NCBI RefSeq assembly: GCF_055900595.2
Contig: NZ_CM148325.1
Strand: one strand, 5' to 3'
DNA: 64,000 bases
Each line of letters starts with the position of its first letter. Position 1 is the first letter of the stretch. A program made the position numbers and the translations under genes. The notes under the pieces were generated by a model. The model ran no database searches. It had not been told where the DNA came from and saw only the letters and a program-made list of their open reading frames with translations. Below are positions 1 through 56,892 of this stretch, piece after piece.

Positions 1-10
1 AGGATTTATC

Positions 11-565
11 ATGACCGCGTATTGGCTGGCCCAGGGCGTGGGTGTCATCGCCTTTCTGATTGGTATCACAACATTTTTCAATCGTGACGAACGTCGCTTC
101 AAAAAGCAGCTTTCGGTCTATAGCGCCGTTATTGGCGTACATTTTTTTCTTCTGGGCACCTATCCCGCTGGTGCCAGTGCCATCCTTAATGCCATTCGTA
201 CATTGATTACCTTACGCACGCGCAGCTTATGGGTAATGGCGATTTTTATTGTGCTGACTGGCGGAATTGGCCTCGCGAAGTTCCATCATCCTGTCGAACT
301 ATTGCCGGTTATCGGCACGATTGTCAGTACCTGGGCGCTATTCCGCTGTAAAGGGCTGACCATGCGCTGCGTAATGTGGTTTTCAACGTGTTGCTGGGTG
401 ATTCACAACTTCTGGGCGGGGTCGATAGGCGGCACGATGATTGAGGGGAGTTTTCTGCTGATGAATGGCCTGAATATCATTCGTTTTTGGCGTATGCAGA
501 GAAGGGGAATTGATCCGTTTAAAGTAGAGAAAACAACCCCTTCCGCCGTAGACGAAAGGGGCTAA
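11..565 (+). CDS. ygjV: inner membrane protein YgjV
   Basis: 184 aa hydrophobic ORF from ATG; convergent with sstT as in K-12 synteny. Confidence 0.8.
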   Translation: MTAYWLAQGVGVIAFLIGITTFFNRDERRFKKQLSVYSAVIGVHFFLLGTYPAGASAILNAIRTLITLRTRSLWVMAIFIVLTGGIGLAKFHHPVELLPVIGTIVSTWALFRCKGLTMRCVMWFSTCCWVIHNFWAGSIGGTMIEGSFLLMNGLNIIRFWRMQRRGIDPFKVEKTTPSAVDERG

Positions 566-568
566 GTA

Positions 569-1813
569 TTAGTTACGCAGGGCGCTATTTGCCAGACGAT
601 CGTCTTCCGCCTGGCAAGCTGCTGCAGTGAACAGCACGTCAGTTGAAGAGTTCAGCGCGGTTTCGCAAGAGTCCTGCAATACGCCGATGATAAAGCCGAC
701 GGCAACCACCTGCATGGCGATATCGTTCGAAATACCGAACATATTACAGGCCAGCGGGATCAGCAGCAGAGAACCACCTGCCACGCCGGACGCACCACAG
801 GCGCACAGAGAAGCAACTACGCTCAACAGCAGCGCCGTTGGTAGATCCACCGGAATACCCAGCGTATTAACCGCAGCCAGCGTCAACACGGTAATGGTGA
901 TTGCTGCGCCCGCCATATTGATCGTTGCACCTAGCGGAATAGAAACGGAATAGGTATCACGATCCAGATTCAGCTTTTCACACAGCGCCATATTCACCGG
1001 AATGTTCGCCGCAGAGCTGCGGGTGAAGAAGGCGTACACGCCGCTTTCGCGCAGGCACAGCAGCACCAGCGGGAACGGGTTACGACGAATTTTCCACCAT
1101 ACCAGCAGCGGGTTAACCACCAACGCCACCAGCAACATACAGCCAACCAGCACCACCAGCAGTTGCGCGTAGCCCCACAGGGTGGAGAAACCGGTGGTTG
1201 CCAGCGTTGAAGCTACCAGACCAAAAATACCGATTGGTGCGAAACGAATGACCAGTTTCACCATAAAGGTGACGGCATTCGACATATCATTGACCAGGTT
1301 TTTAGTGGTTTCGTTACCGTGACGCAGTGCAAAACCGAGGCCAATTGCCCACACCAGAATCCCGATGTAGTTACCTTTCAGCAACGCGTCGATGGGGTTG
1401 GAAACCATGCTCATTACCAGCCCACGCATCACTTCTACAATGCCTGACGGTGGCGAAATATCACTCGCGCTACTGGACAAGTGCAGGGTAGAAGGGAAGG
1501 CAAAGCTGAAGACTACCGCGGCCAGAGCAGCAGAGAAGGTGCCCAGCAGATAGAGGAACAGAATAGGGCGAATGTTGGTTTTCTGCCCGTGCTGGTGGTT
1601 AGCAATAGATGCCATTACCAGCATCAGCACCAGAATCGGCGCTACAGCTTTCAGGGCACCAACGAACAAAGTACCTAACAGACCGACAGCTTCAGCCGCC
1701 GGTTTTGAGATCCATGCCAGAAGAATCCCCAGAACAAGGCCGACCAGGATTTGTTTTACCAGGCTGCCATGAGCCAGACGCCGGAATAGCCCCGGTGAAC
1801 GTTGCGTAGTCAT
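569..1813 (-). CDS. sstT: serine/threonine:Na+ symporter SstT
   Basis: 414 aa multi-TM ORF, ATG start, length and N-terminus [10 protein letters not shown] fit SstT. Confidence 0.92.
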
Positions 1814-2135
1814 TTTTCGATCCTTTCATTGTGTTGTCGCACATCCCTGGTGCGTTCTGTCGACGCATCTTTCAGGATGTAACAAAGTGTTTGCAAGGTC
1901 GAGTATAAGGAAAGTTACAGCTTCGGGAAGCGAAAAATGCTGGATTTTAAAGAGAGGTCATATTTTGCAACTTAATGGTTACATTTGTTTGACATAAAAA
2001 TAAAGCCCAACGTGCGGCTTCCAGACTGATGACAACGTCAAAAAAGTACTCGGTCAGTCCCCTCTCCCTGGAAGAGAGAGGGAGAAAACGGTGCTCATGT
2101 TGATGACAAGGTACACGGCTTAGGCAGATTAAAAA

Positions 2136-3101
2136 TCATCCCACCCGCTGCTTATCATGCCGATAATTCACCCAGGCGTTGATAATAAACGTCATCACCA
2201 GAATGCCAAACACCACACCCAGCGAAACGGCGATCGGAATATGGTAGAAGTCGACAATCAGCATCTTGATACCGATAAACACCAGAATCACTGCCAGACC
2301 ATATTTGAGCATCGAGAAACGTTCTGCTACGCCCGCCAGCAGGAAATACATCGCACGCAGGCCGAGGATCGCAAACAGGTTTGAGGTCAGCACAATAAAC
2401 GGATCGGTGGTAACAGCGAAGATAGCCGGAATGCTATCCACGGCGAAAATCACGTCGCTCAACTCCACCAGAATCAGTACCAGCATCAGCGGCGTGGCAT
2501 ACAACAAACCATTCTTACGCACAAAGAAATGCTCGTTGTCGATGGTGTCGGTCATGCGCAAATGACCGCGCAGCCAGCGCACCAGCGGCTTGTCACCAAT
2601 ACCTGATTCATCTTCATGAGCCAGCGCCATCTTCACGCCAGTAAACAGCAGGAAGGCACCGAAGATATACAGGATCCAGTCGAACTGCGAAATCAGCCAG
2701 CTGCCAGTGAAGATCATGATGGTACGCAGAACAATCGCCCCGAGTACGCCATACACGAGCACGCGGCGTTGTAATGCCGCCGGAACAGAGAAATAGCTGA
2801 ACAACATCAGCCAGACGAAGACGTTATCGACCGCCAGTGATTTCTCAATCAGATAACCCGTGAGGAAGGCCAATGCCTGAGGGTCCGCGACTTCGCGCCC
2901 CTGTGTCTGCGCCAGATACCACCAGAAAGCGGCATTAAACAATAACGACAGTGTCACCCAGACCAGCGACCAGGCCGCAGCCTGTTTCATGGTCATGGCA
3001 TGTGCCCCGCGACGCCCCTGCAACAACAGGTCGATAGCCAGCATAATGACGACAACAACAGCGAATCCGCCCCATAGCAACGGCGTGCCGACAGTATTCA
3101 T
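2136..3101 (-). CDS. alx: TerC-family membrane protein Alx
   Basis: 321 aa TerC-like ORF preceded by a long structured leader. Confidence 0.9.
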
Positions 3102-3300
3102 AGAAGTTCCTTACACATAAAAAAACGGCCAACGTCGGAAGACGTCAGCCGCTGCTTTTTATGCATAGACCTCGCCTTCCGGCAAGGTCTCACTTACAAC
3201 AAAAAAGGAATACGTCTGCGTATTCCTTTCGGGTTGCCCGGTGACCGGATGTGGTTTTTCACACATCGTAATGACGATCGACCGGCAATGAAGTTACTCC
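3102..3300 (-). promoter_or_regulatory. sraF: alx 5' leader, yybP-ykoY (Mn/pH-responsive) riboswitch-like element with terminator hairpins
   Basis: minus-strand leader contains AAAGGGGAGUA core, a perfect hairpin AGGAAUACG-CAGA-CGUAUUCCU followed by U6, and a second hairpin plus U7 abutting the alx start. Confidence 0.5.
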
Positions 3301-3383
3301 CCTTTGCAGGTAACAAAGTATGACAGACCATTCGGTCAGTCAATGGTCTGTTACATCCCTTTTACACTGTTTTACTTTGGCTA

Positions 3384-4370
3384 TTATAGTTTTACGCTAT
3401 CTGCCGGAAAAATCACCCCGGTCTGGCGGCGGATCTCGGTCAGCAGCCTGGCGGTGATACGACTGACCGCCAGCCCTGGATGATCTACCAGATGTTCATC
3501 CACCAGGGTAGCGAACAGCTCTGCTTCGTACAGCATGGTATTAATATGCTGCGGTTGGGTAAGATCCTGCATCTGGCTGCCGCGCGGCACATAGCAAACT
3601 TTCTGGCATTCAGACAGTTTTTCAATCACCAGCGATCCCGCTTCGCCCTGAATCTCACTTGCCAGCACAGAATCACTGACCTTTGAGTGCTGCAAGGTAA
3701 CGCTGAAATCACCGTAATCCATCACCACCACGCCGTGGGCATCCACACCACTTGCCAGCAAACTGGCGGTTGCCTGCACGCTTTTCGGTTCACCAAATAA
3801 CGCCACCGCCGACGCCAGACAGTAAAAGCCGATATCCATAATTGAACCGTTGGAGAATGCCGGATTGAAGGTGTTGGGATTCTCGCCGTCCAGATAACGT
3901 TGATATCGCGAGGAATATTGGCAATAGTTGAAAAAGACTTTACGCAATTTGCCAACTTTCGGCAGTACCTGGCGTAACAAATGGAAATTCGGCAGGCTGG
4001 CGGTTTTAAATGCCTCAAACAGCACCACCTGATTTTCCCGCGCACAGGCAATGGCGGCATCCACTTCCGCCAGATTCGACGCCAGCGGTTTCTCGCAAAT
4101 CACATGAATTTTATGGCTAAGGAAAAGTTGTGTCTGGGAAAAGTGCAGGGCATTCGGGCTGGCAATATACACCGCGTCAATAGCATCACTTTCTGCCATC
4201 GCTTCCAGCGACGTAAACAGATGCTCGACAGAAAAATCATTGGCGAAGTGCTGGGCCTTTTCAAGGCTGCGGGAATAGACAGCGGTTAACTTGTATTTAC
4301 CGCTCTCATGGGCGGCCTCGACGAACTGGCGGGTGATCCAGTTCGTGCCAATCACAGCGAAACGTATCAT
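3384..4370 (-). CDS. ygjR: Gfo/Idh/MocA-family oxidoreductase YgjR
   Basis: ORF 3384..4388; start placed at internal ATG (MIRFAVIGTNWI, Rossmann N-terminus), 328 aa. Confidence 0.85.
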   Translation of the reverse strand: MIRFAVIGTNWITRQFVEAAHESGKYKLTAVYSRSLEKAQHFANDFSVEHLFTSLEAMAESDAIDAVYIASPNALHFSQTQLFLSHKIHVICEKPLASNLAEVDAAIACARENQVVLFEAFKTASLPNFHLLRQVLPKVGKLRKVFFNYCQYSSRYQRYLDGENPNTFNPAFSNGSIMDIGFYCLASAVALFGEPKSVQATASLLASGVDAHGVVVMDYGDFSVTLQHSKVSDSVLASEIQGEAGSLVIEKLSECQKVCYVPRGSQMQDLTQPQHINTMLYEAELFATLVDEHLVDHPGLAVSRITARLLTEIRRQTGVIFPADSVKL

Positions 4371-4448
4371 AACGCGTGGATACTCCATAAAGGGATTCTG
4401 CCGTCAATGTAGCACGCCTTTTTCATCTTCGACGTGCGCAGATACGCA

Positions 4449-5141
4449 TTATTCTTTCGCCGGACAGCCATGCTCGCTAAACGGCCCAATCATGACCGAC
4501 GGCCCGAGATATTTCGGCTGTCGATGGAGGATTTTCGCGTCAATCACTGCGCTGACGCGAGCGAGTTTCTCCCGCAGCTGAGTATAAAAACCATGTTTCA
4601 TATTCAGGTCTGGTGCGTTAAACCCGATGGCATCGATGCCGTACTGTTTTGCCAGCCAGATGGCGCGTTGGTTATGAAATTCTTGCGAAATAATAGTGAT
4701 ATGGCTTTCACCAAACACCTTTTTGGCACGCACCACCGAATCAAGCGTTGAGAATCCGGCATAGTCGCAGAAGATGACTTTTGCGGGTACGCCTTTAGCG
4801 ATCAAAGCCTGCTGCATGCCTGAGGCTTCATCGTAATTTTTACGTCCGTTATCGCCGCTCACTAGTAGCCATTTCACTTTTCCGGCGTGGTACAACTCTG
4901 CGGCGGTATCAATGCGTCGGGTAAAGTAGCGATTACCCGGCCTCGCCCCCAACAATAAACCCACGTTGCGTGTTGGAACGGCGTTAACATCGTTCCAGGT
5001 CAGCTGTTTGCTGGCGTTGACCATTGCGCGATCGGCGATAAAAATTGTCGCTCCTGCCACAAGTAACAGTAAGCAGGCAATCTTTAGAGTCCGGCGAGAA
5101 AAACAAACGCGGCGAAAAAGGCGGGCAAATGCGCGCAGCAT
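4449..5141 (-). CDS. ygjQ: DUF218 (ElyC/SanA-like) membrane-anchored protein YgjQ
   Basis: 230 aa ORF, ATG start, N-terminal TM segment. Confidence 0.85.
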
Positions 5142-5218
5142 GGTCGTTATCCTTAACGAAAGGGGGGGAGGTCGATTTTAGGCGCTAAAGGAGGAAAAGA
5201 TAACGCCTGACATCATTT

Positions 5219-5722
5219 TCAGATTTTGTCCTGCCCAAGCGACAACTGCGTTAGCCACAGCCGGGTGTCGAACTCAAGCTGGTGGTACTGCGGTTCCATA
5301 TGACAGCACAACTGGTAAAACGCTTTGTTGTGCTCTTTCTCCTTCAGGTGCGCCAACTCGTGCACCACGATCATGCGCAAAAACGGTTCCGGCGCGTTGC
5401 GAAACACGGTAGCGACGCGGATCTCTGCTTTTGCTTTCAGCTTGCCGCCCTGCACACGCGAAACAGCGGTATGTAACCCGAGCGCGTTTTTCAGCACATG
5501 GATCTTGTTGTCATACATCACTTTATTGATCGGTGGAGCATTACGCAGAAACTGATTTTTCAGATCCTGAGTATATTGCCAAAGGGCTTTATCGGTGGCG
5601 TAGTCGTGTGTTCCCGGATAGCGTTTTGCCAGCACATCGCCCAGACGCTGTTCATTAATCAGCGTGCGCACCTGGGAAAGCAACTGTTCGGGATAACCCT
5701 GAAGATAAGTAAGATTGCTCAT
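5219..5722 (-). CDS. ygjP: HExxH metal-dependent hydrolase YgjP (WLM/SprT-like)
   Basis: [11 protein letters not shown] motif; start set to ATG at codon 13 of the ORF (167 aa); ORF track start is GTG. Confidence 0.8.
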
Positions 5723-5806
5723 AACCGCCCACGAAAAAGAGAAAAAGGGTATACTCACGCACCCTTTTCAGGGGCAACGTCGAAATTTTATCATTCAGGA
5801 GGGCCG

Positions 5807-6943
5807 ATGAGCCACTTAGACAACGGTTTCCGTTCACTGACACTACAACGTTTTCCGGCGACGGATGACGTTAACCCGCTACAGGCGTGGGAAGCGGCAG
5901 ATGAATATTTGCTGCAACAGTTGGACGACACAGAAATCCGCGGCCCGGTGTTAATCCTGAATGATGCCTTTGGGGCGTTAAGTTGTGCGCTGGCGGAACA
6001 TAAGCCGTACAGCATTGGCGACTCATACATCAGCGAACTGGCGACGCGCGAGAATTTACGCCTCAACGGGATTGATGAATCGAGCGTGAAGTTTCTCGAC
6101 AGCACCGCTGACTACCCGCAGCAGCCGGGCGTGGTACTGATCAAAGTGCCGAAAACACTGGCATTGCTGGAACAGCAACTGCGCGCATTGCGCAAAGTAG
6201 TCACGCCGGATACACGTATTATTGCCGGTGCTAAAGCCCGTGACATTCACACCTCCACGCTGGAACTGTTCGAAAAAGTGCTCGGCCCGACCACCACCAC
6301 GCTGGCATGGAAGAAAGCGCGCCTGATTAACTGCACTTTCAACGAGCCGCCGCTGGTTGATGCACCGCAAACCGTTAGCTGGAAGCTGGAGGGTACTGAC
6401 TGGACTATCCACAACCATGCGAATGTCTTCTCACGCACCGGGCTTGATATTGGCGCGCGCTTCTTTATGCAGCATCTGCCAGAGAATCTCGAGGGTGAGG
6501 TTGTCGATCTCGGTTGTGGTAACGGCGTTATTGGCCTGACGCTGCTTGATAAAAACCCGCAGGCGAAAGTGGTGTTTGTCGATGAATCACCGATGGCGGT
6601 TGCTTCCAGCCGTTTGAATGTTGAAACCAACATGCCAGAGGCGTTGGATCGCTGCGAGTTTATGATCAACAACGCGCTCTCCGGCGTGGAGCCGTTCCGC
6701 TTTAATGCTGTGCTCTGCAACCCGCCGTTTCACCAGCAACATGCACTGACCGATAACGTTGCCTGGGAAATGTTCCACCACGCGCGCCGCTGCCTGAAAA
6801 TCAACGGCGAGCTGTATATCGTTGCCAACCGTCACCTGGATTACTTCCATAAACTGAAGAAAATTTTTGGCAACTGCACCACCATTGCCACAAATAATAA
6901 ATTTGTGGTGCTGAAAGCGGTGAAGCTGGGGCGTCGTCGGTAA
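5807..6943 (+). CDS. rlmG: 23S rRNA m2G1835 methyltransferase RlmG
   Basis: ATG at 5807 after AGGAGGG RBS; 378 aa; NPPFH methyltransferase motif; the upstream ORF extension overlaps ygjP. Confidence 0.9.
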
Positions 6944-6954
6944 GATTGACAGCT

Positions 6955-7050
6955 ACCTGCCGGATGCGGCGTAAACGCCTTATCCGGCATACGTTCAGCA
7001 CATTACCCCCAGGTCGGATAAGACGCGGCAAGCGTCGCATCCGGCAATGT
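6955..7050. repeat. REP/BIME palindromic units
   Basis: GCCGGATGCGGCGTAAACGCCTTATCCGGC and a second inverted REP copy. Confidence 0.7.
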
Positions 7051-7198
7051 CTGCCCAGTTCTGGAATCGCGCTTCCATAAAACAAAAAATCCCTGTCACC
7101 ATCCTCTACATTCTCTTGTTTAGCGTTTTTCTACGTTTATTCTTCCGTCACACAGATAAATTCATCCGTTGCCAATTTGTCAACGGACGTGATGAAGA

Positions 7199-7513
7199 AT
7201 GCACCTGATAACTCAAAAAGAATTGAAAGATGCTGCGGAAAAATACCCGCAACATAAAACGGAGTTGGGGGCTCTGGGGAACACGATTGCTAAGGGATAT
7301 TTCAAAAAACCTGAGTCATTAAAAGCAGTATTCCCTTCTCTGGATAACTTCAAATATCTGGATAAGCATTATGTTTTCAATGTCGGGGGCAATGAATTAC
7401 GTGTTGTAGCAATGGTCTTTTTTGAATCGCAAAAGTGCTACATACGTGAAGTTATGACGCATAAAGAATACGATTTCTTTACCGCCGTTCATCGTACTAA
7501 GGGGAAAAAATGA
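7199..7513 (+). CDS. higB: type II toxin HigB (mRNA interferase)
   Basis: 104 aa ORF, 4 bp ATGA overlap with downstream antitoxin gene. Confidence 0.9.
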   Translation: MHLITQKELKDAAEKYPQHKTELGALGNTIAKGYFKKPESLKAVFPSLDNFKYLDKHYVFNVGGNELRVVAMVFFESQKCYIREVMTHKEYDFFTAVHRTKGKK

Positions 7514-7926
7514 TTGCGATTGCCGACATCTTGCAAGCAGGAGAAAAGCTAACTGCTGTGGCACCTTTTCTGGCGGGTATTCAGAACGAGGAACAATACA
7601 CCCAGGCGCTGGAACTGGTAGATCATCTGCTGCTCAACGATCCTGAAAACCCCTTGCTGGATCTGGTGTGTGCCAAAATAACCGCGTGGGAAGAATCAGC
7701 GCCCGAATTTGCTGAATTTAATGCCATGGCTCAAGCCATGCCTGGCGGTATAGCTGTGATTCGTACCCTTATGGATCAATATGGTTTAACCCTTTCCGAT
7801 CTGCCGGAAATTGGCAGTAAATCGATGGTGTCACGCGTTTTGAGCGGGAAGAGGAAATTAACGCTGGAACACGCTAAAAAACTGGCAACGCGATTCGGCA
7901 TTTCTCCCGCCTTGTTTATTGATTAA
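7510..7926 (+). CDS. higA: type II antitoxin HigA (HTH-XRE)
   Basis: 138 aa ORF translationally coupled to higB. Confidence 0.9.
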   Translation: MIAIADILQAGEKLTAVAPFLAGIQNEEQYTQALELVDHLLLNDPENPLLDLVCAKITAWEESAPEFAEFNAMAQAMPGGIAVIRTLMDQYGLTLSDLPEIGSKSMVSRVLSGKRKLTLEHAKKLATRFGISPALFID

Positions 7927-7933
7927 CGCGACG

Positions 7934-7957
7934 TGCCGGATGCGTCACATCCGGCAC
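7934..7957. repeat. single REP-like hairpin (possible bidirectional terminator)
   Basis: GTGCCGGATGCGTCACATCCGGCAC between convergent higA and fadH. Confidence 0.6.
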
Positions 7958-7970
7958 TTCAAATAACGAT

Positions 7971-10016
<2,046 letters not shown>

Positions 10017-10116
10017 TTATGTGGTCGGATGAGTTCTAATTTAGCCGTCGCTGGAGAAAAGGGAAAAGGGGAGTGCGGGGTTTGTGATGGGAATCAAAAA
10101 GAATACGCTGGTGGTA

Positions 10117-10204
<88 letters not shown>

Positions 10205-10213
10205 CGTTGCAAA

Positions 10214-15265
<5,052 letters not shown>

Positions 15266-15277
15266 ATGCCGCCGTAA

Positions 15278-20537
<5,260 letters not shown>

Positions 20538-55731: not shown

Positions 55732-56892
55732 TTATTCAACAAAAATATGTGGATAAAACCGAGACATATCCTGGGTGATCAATGCACGGTCTTCACGAAT
55801 GCCAATTCCGGCAGGTTGATCGTTCACCAGCCAGCTACCAATCAGCATATAGCTATCGCCGAATTTTGGTAACGGGTGGAATTGCTGAACAATCATCCCT
55901 TCTTCGCCATACGGACCTTCTGCTGCTTCAATGGTTTTGCCGTTCTCAATGATCGACACGTTTGCGCCTTCACGGGAGAAGATCGGTTTAACCACATATT
56001 TTTCCATTTGCGGATGATCATCTTCCGCAAAATAAGCGGGCAGCAGGTTCGGGTGATTCGGGAACATCTCCCACAGTAGCGGCAGAAGCGCTTTGTTGGA
56101 GATAATGCTCTTCCACGCCGGTTCCAGCCAGCGTACGCCTGCATCCTCCAGCTTGGTGGAGAACATCTCACGCAGCATAAATTCCCACGGATACAGCTTG
56201 AACAGGTTAGAAATCACCTGATCCTGTAAATCCGTGAACTGACCTTTTTCGCCTAAACCGATATCGTCGATGTAGAGGAATTCAGTAGCGATTTCAGCTT
56301 CTGTCGCGCAGTCCTGCAAATACTGAATGGTTCCGCGATCTTCCACCGTGTCGCGACAGCAGGTGAGATGCAGCAACTGGAAGCCATACTGTTCACGCAG
56401 CTGGACAAAGCGATCGATCAGCTTCTCTTGCAGACTGTTAAACTGGTCGCTGCCTTCCGGCAGGTTACCGGCGTTAAGCTGATCTTCCAGCCAGATCCAC
56501 TGAAAGAATGCGGCTTCATACAGTGACGTTGGCGTATCGGCGTTATTTTCCAGAAGTTTAGGTTCGCCAGTACCATCCCACGCCAGATCAAGACGCGAAT
56601 AAAGCGATGGCTGGTGAGTCAGCCATGACTGGCGCACAAAACTCCAGGTGTGTTTTGGAATGCGGAATTTGGTCATCAGCTCATCGCTGGCGATCACTTT
56701 TTCAACCACTTTCAGGCACATCTGGTGCAGTTCGGCGGTGACTTCTTCCAGCTTTTCAACCTGGGAGAGGGTCAACTTGTAGTAAGCATCTTCACACCAG
56801 TATGGCTCTCCGTACATGGTGTGAAAATTGAAACCGTATTCGTGGGCTTTTTCGCGCCAGTCCGGACGCTCGGTAATACTGACTCTTTCCAT
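55732..56892 (-). CDS. ygiC: glutathionylspermidine synthase-like ATP-grasp protein YgiC
   Basis: 386 aa. Confidence 0.9.

Follow-up and report, generated by a model that had tools for sequence, protein, structure and literature searches.

An apparent BoxC deletion remnant downstream of alx and a single-copy look-alike hairpin downstream of ygjI in Escherichia coli

Two similar CT-rich/GA-rich hairpins, each following a minus-strand gene, lie about 12 kb apart in a 64-kb stretch of E. coli DNA (the window). Judged by its sequence and position, the hairpin downstream of alx (site 1) is what a deletion left of a known pair of BoxC elements, not a new repeat class. We consider it probable that this identification holds together with two further propositions, namely that the hairpin downstream of ygjI (site 2) is a separate, single-copy structure, and that both behave in RNA as 3'-end stem-loops and not as intrinsic terminators. 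The biology of the two sites is thus already known and ordinary: a known BoxC relic and a single-copy look-alike.

The two hairpins and their resemblance

The window is inverted with respect to K-12 MG1655 (3.22-3.24 Mb), and the names of the flanking genes were taken from the RefSeq annotation of near-identical E. coli genomes. Site 1 occupies the spacer between its upstream gene alx (2136-3101, minus strand) and sstT (569-1813, minus strand); site 2 that between its upstream gene ygjI (13785-15218, minus strand) and ygjJ (12581-13651, minus strand). The site 1 stretch (2057-2088, GTCCCCTCTCCCTGGAAGAGAGAGGGAGAAAA) has 47 nt between position 2088 and the alx stop codon (2136-2138), and the site 2 stretch (13727-13758, TTTTCCCTCTCCCCATCCAGGAAGAGGGAAAA) has 26 nt between position 13758 and the ygjI stop codon (13785-13787). 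The initial annotation was therefore right in placing two hairpins, each just downstream of a minus-strand gene; its coordinates were correct for both, and the sequence that it quoted for site 2 lacked two leading T's. YgjI itself shares 87-88% identity with proteins of Vibrio, Photobacterium, Aeromonas and Plesiomonas and is barely closer (90%) to that of Enterobacter, and these near-equal identities suggest that the ygjI permease may have been acquired by horizontal transfer.

The site 1 hairpin proper (2060..2082, minus strand) reads CCCTCTCTC-TTCCA-GGGAGAGGG, which corresponds to blocks 1 and 2 of BoxC paired as a Watson-Crick hairpin. Its minus-strand RNA is predicted to form a 10-bp stem with a 3-nt loop (-18.9 kcal/mol), which is no more stable than dinucleotide shuffles of the same sequence (z = -1.4), because CT/GA-rich sequence pairs easily. 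The site 2 hairpin (13727..13758, minus strand), TTTT-CCCTCTTCC-TGGATG-GGGAGAGGG-AAAA, has a predicted 14-bp stem at -24.3 kcal/mol (z = -3.95), and none of 200 shuffles was as stable. The structure may extend further (13715..13763, minus strand): in the fold of 13652-13784 (-38 kcal/mol, z = -3.67), a predicted outer 5-bp helix, AGGCA/UGCCU, pairing 13763-13759 with 13719-13715, encloses the hairpin together with a 7-nt bulge, and the U-rich sequence UUAUAUUUUUAU comes after it.

The pattern CCCTCT-N4-20-AGAGGG occurs exactly twice in the 64 kb, at sites 1 and 2, where 0.02 occurrences would be expected. The sequence GGGAGAGGG occurs three times against 0.16 expected; its third occurrence, at 56763, lies within a coding region, without a hairpin partner, and was set aside as chance. 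When the BoxC hairpin core was searched with at most one mismatch per block, sites 1 and 2 were again the only matching loci in the window, for which shuffles gave 0.05 strand-hits by chance; scaled to a 4.6-Mb genome, the same shuffle null yields 1-2 chance loci. The sharing of sequence as well as structure first remarked upon thus stands out at the scale of the window (0.02-0.05 expected), and the resemblance, as measured on sequence, is significant for the window and not overwhelming for the genome. The search for the hairpin core used a fuzzy regular expression and shuffles; a covariance model was dropped because MAFFT, given the 23 published TMECO elements, put their differences in length at the 5' end, with the left arm out of register. 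Rfam gave no match at gathering score in 1-16000, and around the two sites it returned chance-level matches only (E 0.2-0.75), far below gathering scores.

Site 1 and the alleles of the alx-sstT spacer

The elements named BoxC in the 1990s were later called PIT (potential intrastrand triplex) elements and are the same as TMECO (Holder et al. 2015, NAR, PMC4666352). Their consensus is CCCTCNCCC-N3-6-GGGNGAGGG-N3-GGGNGAGGG, and K-12 carries 23 copies, five of which stand as inverted pairs (Holder et al. 2015, PMC4666352). By blastn, the 36-nt consensus is present in 5,413 of 5,426 complete E. coli genomes, at a median of 18 places per genome (range 1-32).

At the very position of site 1, the K-12 alx-sstT spacer contains two inverted BoxC elements, TMECO #12 (3239599-3239634, plus strand) and TMECO #13 (3239698-3239662, minus strand) (Table 1 of Holder et al. 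2015, PMC4666352). The K-12 spacer reads CCCTCTCCCTTCCAGGGAGAGGGTCGGGGTGAGGGT, then an intervening spacer, then CCCCTCACCCTAACCCTCTCCCCAAACGGGGCGAGGG, and is 76 bp longer than that of the window. In the alignment, site 1 equals the K-12 sequence minus 77 nt and otherwise follows base for base TMECO #12 and the flank of TMECO #13, apart from a single C>T substitution in block 1 relative to TMECO #12. The missing 77 nt run from just past GGGAGAGGG of #12 through the end of GGGGCGAGGG of #13, and the junction, between 2060 and 2059, falls at a GAGGG direct repeat shared by the two ends (microhomology). Both outer flanks are recognizable. The 5' flank GTTTTCT (2083..2089, minus strand) also precedes the K-12 type-B copies TMECO #12 and #20, and on the other side GACTGACCGAGTAC (2046..2059, minus strand) is the outer flank of the lost partner, TMECO #13; similar GACNG flanks follow TMECO #2, #7 and #17.

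Blocks 1 and 2 of BoxC (CCCTCNCCC, a loop of 3-6 nt, GGGNGAGGG) are found at both sites, each with one mismatch in block 1. The third block (N3 followed by GGGNGAGGG) is missing from both, site 1 continuing as GAC-TGACCGAGT and site 2 as AAA-ATAGTTTCT. The sequence GGGTGAGGG occurs nowhere in the 64 kb, and the window has no full BoxC copy. Positional homology to a member of the BoxC family was found for site 1 only. The assignment of site 1 to BoxC/PIT/TMECO, through its homology to K-12 TMECO #12/#13, supplies the named repeat class that the initial annotation could not give and removes a candidate unnamed one. The small repeat family proposed there survives for site 1, the family being the known one; site 2 is single-copy, and a separate family made up of the two sites falls away.

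In the ancestral state, the alx-sstT spacer would have held two inverted BoxC copies, as in K-12. A 77-bp deletion between the GAGGG repeats would then have taken out the third G-block in one copy, together with the spacer and almost all of the partner, leaving just a CT/GA hairpin between the two outer BoxC flanks. Stimulation of deletions by palindromes is an established process, from which we infer that the deletion likely arose by replication slippage helped by the long palindrome of the pair. As RNA, the BoxC pair folds into a long hairpin of -63 kcal/mol, which fits slippage between nearby direct repeats. That the change was probably a deletion rather than an insertion is argued from parsimony and the rarity of the allele, not from a strain phylogeny.

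A census of 5,426 E. coli genomes revealed at least four structural alleles at this spacer. The paired BoxC allele (K-12, O157, O55) accounts for about 47-51%. An unrelated segment of about 430 bp, without BoxC, is found in about 31% (1,660 genomes, among them D10), and another collapsed form, CCCTCTCCCCAAAAGGGGCGAGGG, in about 21% (ST131, 536); the allele of the window is carried by 10 of the 5,426, among them NZ_CP098223.1 and NZ_CP043414.1. The other collapsed form keeps the TMECO #13 hairpin and has lost 76 nt between 9-nt direct repeats, CCCTCTCCC. Since the two stumps keep different ends of the pair, the pair would be the parent and the stumps its deletion products. The collapse of site 1, with a bare hairpin as its outcome, agrees with the published "palindrome effect", in which palindromic TMECO sites have either lost both elements or lost parts of both with a stable stem-loop left behind (Holder et al., PMC4666352). 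In the same study, TMECO loci were far more rearranged than control spacers (Holder et al., PMC4666352). Site 1 can be read as a clean natural case of palindrome-associated deletion between short direct repeats in a hypervariable spacer.

Two further observations concern this spacer. In a derivative of E. coli O127:H6 (L006, 1-339), the transposase gene of an IS4-like element, ISEc13, adjoins a BoxC remnant of which the right half of the hairpin only is left; this insertion was seen in one genome. The segment of about 430 bp in E. coli D10 (L007, 266-700) holds a repeat of about 285 bp with a median of 3 places per genome, and positions 369-534 of L007 give a weak, sub-threshold Rfam match to TwoAYGGAY RNA (29.9 bits; gathering score 43).

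The variability of the spacer, with its structural alleles and its IS insertion, could be taken to mean that such elements act at the level of DNA, as triplex/H-DNA, cruciform or recombination hot-spot, rather than through RNA, the more so as oligonucleotides with TMECO sequences fold into intrastrand triplexes in vitro and as the loci themselves are hypervariable (Holder et al. 2015, PMC4666352). We regard this as unlikely. Having lost the third G-block, site 1 can no longer adopt the intrastrand triplex of three blocks by which the BoxC family is defined, and the block required for it is missing from site 2 as well; in vivo footprinting detected no triplex even with full elements (PMC4666352). 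Nor is site 2 unstable, as it shows no length variation in 5,373 genomes.

Distribution and ancestry of site 2

Site 2 is nearly fixed in E. coli. It was found at one place per genome in 5,377 genomes, as two alleles that differ by one SNP in the loop, and blastn with site 2 (E<=10) returned neither a paralogue nor a BoxC copy across the E. coli genomes. The recurrence of the motif, offered initially as a way to recognize a repeat, is therefore observed for the BoxC consensus and not for the sequence of site 2.

Outside E. coli the hairpin is missing from syntenic relatives, which makes site 2 a feature of the E. coli lineage. The ebgA-ebgC-ygjI-ygjJ-ygjK cluster of Enterobacter hormaechei has a ygjI-ygjJ spacer of 38 nt without a hairpin, and those of two further relatives, of 42-46 nt, lack it too; the outgroup spacers of these three relatives, looked at for signs of BoxC descent, thus contain no hairpin at all. 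Site 2 would accordingly be a product of the E. coli lineage, arisen within the ygjI-ygjJ spacer, either as an old, fixed BoxC collapse or as an independent hairpin. In a contig whose YgjI is 94% identical (L008, 3935-4052), the gene is followed by a different sequence, AAGTGAGTGAATTCCCAGGAGCATAGATAACTATGTGACTGGG, in place of the hairpin, which looks like an ERIC/IRU repeat. A junction between CATTTTCCCT and AAAATA in the metagenomic sequence L012 was considered as the site of hairpin insertion and dropped, the alignment being unreliable and L010 and L011 disagreeing with it.

That site 2 evolved independently of BoxC, as a CT/GA hairpin in its own right, and resembles site 1 through convergence or chance is a reading to which we give slightly less than equal weight. 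Besides lacking the third block, site 2 has no GACNG outer flank, and what it has in common with BoxC is limited to the 9-mer stem and the TTTT flank. The absence of BoxC copies and paralogues among its blastn matches points the same way, as does the shuffle null, which allows 1-2 loci of this kind per genome. Hairpins of the site 2 type also seem to arise repeatedly: the pattern TTTTCCCTCT-N6-14-AGAGGGAAAA, that is, TTTT-CCCTCT...AGAGGG-AAAA, was found at 72 loci in unrelated members of many phyla among about 100,000 species genomes, with at most two per genome. That scan contains no Escherichia locus, though the window fits the pattern; the genomes scanned seem not to include this E. coli sequence, and the scan does not date site 2 within Escherichia. 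Among the 72 matches, one in Enterobacter sp. EA-1 shares 17 nt with site 2, including part of the loop, but lies at a different locus, hemL/fhuB; among 72 matches, a similarity of this extent may be due to chance.

Against independence stands the low expectation for a matching pair within the window, only about 0.02-0.05, and the fact that, at a distance of 12 kb within the window, a BoxC pair has collapsed to a bare hairpin. Site 2 also has the TTTT flank that type-B BoxC copies carry on their 5' side. Moreover, a paired, inverted BoxC-like locus of Enterobacter cloacae M-7 (L083, 6760-6900) has a forward copy in which a hairpin clamped by TTTT/AAAA, as at site 2, is followed by GGGTGCGGGGTGAGGGG with a third G-block, which makes a BoxC origin of site 2 plausible. 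On these sequence comparisons, the chances that site 2 is of BoxC ancestry are about even.

Termination, RNA 3' ends and relation to known systems

The initial annotation proposed that the hairpins double as terminators, which is not supported for intrinsic termination. A terminator consensus scan of 1-16000 passed neither site. At both sites, and on both strands, a T-run lies 5' and an A-run 3' of the stem, so that no U-tract follows either hairpin: none is found within 0-2 nt of the stem, and the tails past the maximal stems read GACUGACC at site 1 and AGUUUCUG at site 2. An earlier experimental study reportedly found PIT elements to be without promoter or terminator activity (cited in Holder et al. 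2015, PMC4666352). What the scan did pass is a terminator-like hairpin (1992..2021, minus strand; match at 2021-2002), GAAGCCGCACGTTGGGCTTT then ATTTTTATGT, with a T-run, 38 nt beyond site 1. This hairpin is kept in the paired and in both collapsed alleles and, from its sequence, is a better candidate than site 1 for the intrinsic terminator of alx.

RNA 3' ends were taken from a single data set, the K-12 Term-seq table of Adams et al. (2021, PMC7815308, Supplementary file 1), which covers three growth conditions and lists 3,110 ends in all; its sequence column runs from -50 to +10 relative to each 3' end, as confirmed on sgrS. All 23 TMECO positions were checked against this table by coordinate prefix. 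Ends were found at four BoxC loci: at 164636 (plus strand, TMECO #2), 5 nt past the last paired G; at 3781065 (plus strand, TMECO #17), 4 nt past it, this being the "primary" lldD 3' end; at 3959467 (minus strand, TMECO #20), likewise 4 nt past; and at 624567 (minus strand, TMECO #7), 12 nt past. By chance, at most 0.2 coincidences would be expected under a uniform distribution, or about 0.7 when the enrichment of 3' ends in intergenic regions is allowed for, both figures being rough estimates of our own. We found no earlier mention in the literature consulted of the ends lying 4-5 nt past BoxC hairpins at three K-12 loci. A very abundant 3' end (about 100,000-240,000 reads) at K-12 624680 (minus strand) is located 4 nt before TMECO #8, in the fepB 5' UTR.

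The mapping of 3' ends, which the initial annotation had recommended for the two sites, thus gave its positive result at other members of the family. In K-12, under the three conditions, the table lists 3' ends neither in the BoxC region between alx and sstT nor in the ygjI-ygjJ spacer; alx and ygjI are both poorly expressed under the conditions used. Transcription of alx mostly stops in the leader, at 3238482, so the lack of an end between alx and sstT is uninformative rather than negative. The leader end, 98 nt before the start codon, corresponds to the first of two strong terminator-like hairpins that the window has upstream of alx, 3203-3230 and 3124-3153 (both minus strand), for which Rfam gave no family at gathering score. 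At ygjI, the best coordinate of a K-12 Rho-termination region, 3227723 (plus strand), coincides with the 3' edge of the site 2 hairpin (PMC7815308, Supplementary file 2), which is no more than suggestive of Rho-dependent termination there. The reads upstream and downstream number 39 and 59 without BCM and 83 and 365 with BCM, low counts in 800-nt windows, and without BCM coverage does not drop across the hairpin.

These data bear on the proposal that the two hairpins, as members of a small repeat family, are themselves the Rho-independent terminators of alx and ygjI. It could appeal to their position 26-47 nt past the stop codon on the transcribed strand, to the coincidence of K-12 BoxC members with Term-seq 3' ends, the "primary" lldD end included, and to the U-rich sequence next to the AGGCA/UGCCU helix that closes the extended predicted fold of site 2. 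We nevertheless judge it highly improbable. It has against it the lack of a U-tract at either hairpin, the scan that passes 2021-2002 instead, the reported inactivity of PIT elements as terminators in direct tests and the single-copy status of site 2. In addition, 3' ends situated 4-5 nt past a stem that has no U-tract fit trimming by exonucleases better than they fit termination; ends a few bases past a stable stem of this kind are what trimming produces. Adams et al. (2021, PMC7815308) likewise point out that post-transcriptional processing obscures the true sites of Rho termination.

The reading that we prefer for the RNA is that of stem-loops at the 3' end. Both hairpins would lie within the 3' UTR of the upstream gene (alx or ygjI), where they could halt 3'-to-5' exonucleases a few bases downstream and so set and protect the mRNA 3' end, termination itself taking place further on, by the putative intrinsic terminator at 2021-2002 for alx and possibly through Rho for ygjI. 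By analogy with the other K-12 BoxC loci, protection of 3' ends is plausible as the RNA role of sites 1 and 2, if they have any. The broader proposition, that BoxC hairpins, bare relics included, are functional, REP-like stem-loops that define 3' ends against exonucleases, we put forward tentatively, as possible but doubtful. The Term-seq ends 4-5 nt past several BoxC hairpins, a by-product of this work, are a lead in that direction; such an RNA role, if true, would give a function to the BoxC/PIT family, known since the 1990s, and would explain why collapsed hairpins are retained.

Compared with known systems, sites 1 and 2 resemble intrinsic terminators in being stable stem-loops shortly past a stop codon, but differ from them in having no U-tract and in failing the consensus scan, and a separate, canonical-looking terminator stands 38 nt past site 1. 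With BoxC, site 1 shares block 1, the loop, block 2, the outer flanks and an intergenic location, and it is the positional homologue of TMECO #12/#13; it differs in the absence of the third G-block and of the partner copy, so that it departs from the full consensus and no triplex is possible. Site 2 has blocks 1 and 2 only and is single-copy, its BoxC ancestry being possible but unproven.

REP/BIME elements are extragenic palindromes, intergenic and transcribed, whose GC-rich hairpins past genes block 3' exonucleases and stabilize mRNA. Like the REP-like hairpins in the same Term-seq table, BoxC hairpins of K-12 have 3' ends just past them; their stems, however, are CT/GA and do not follow the REP consensus, and a stabilizing role of BoxC is putative.
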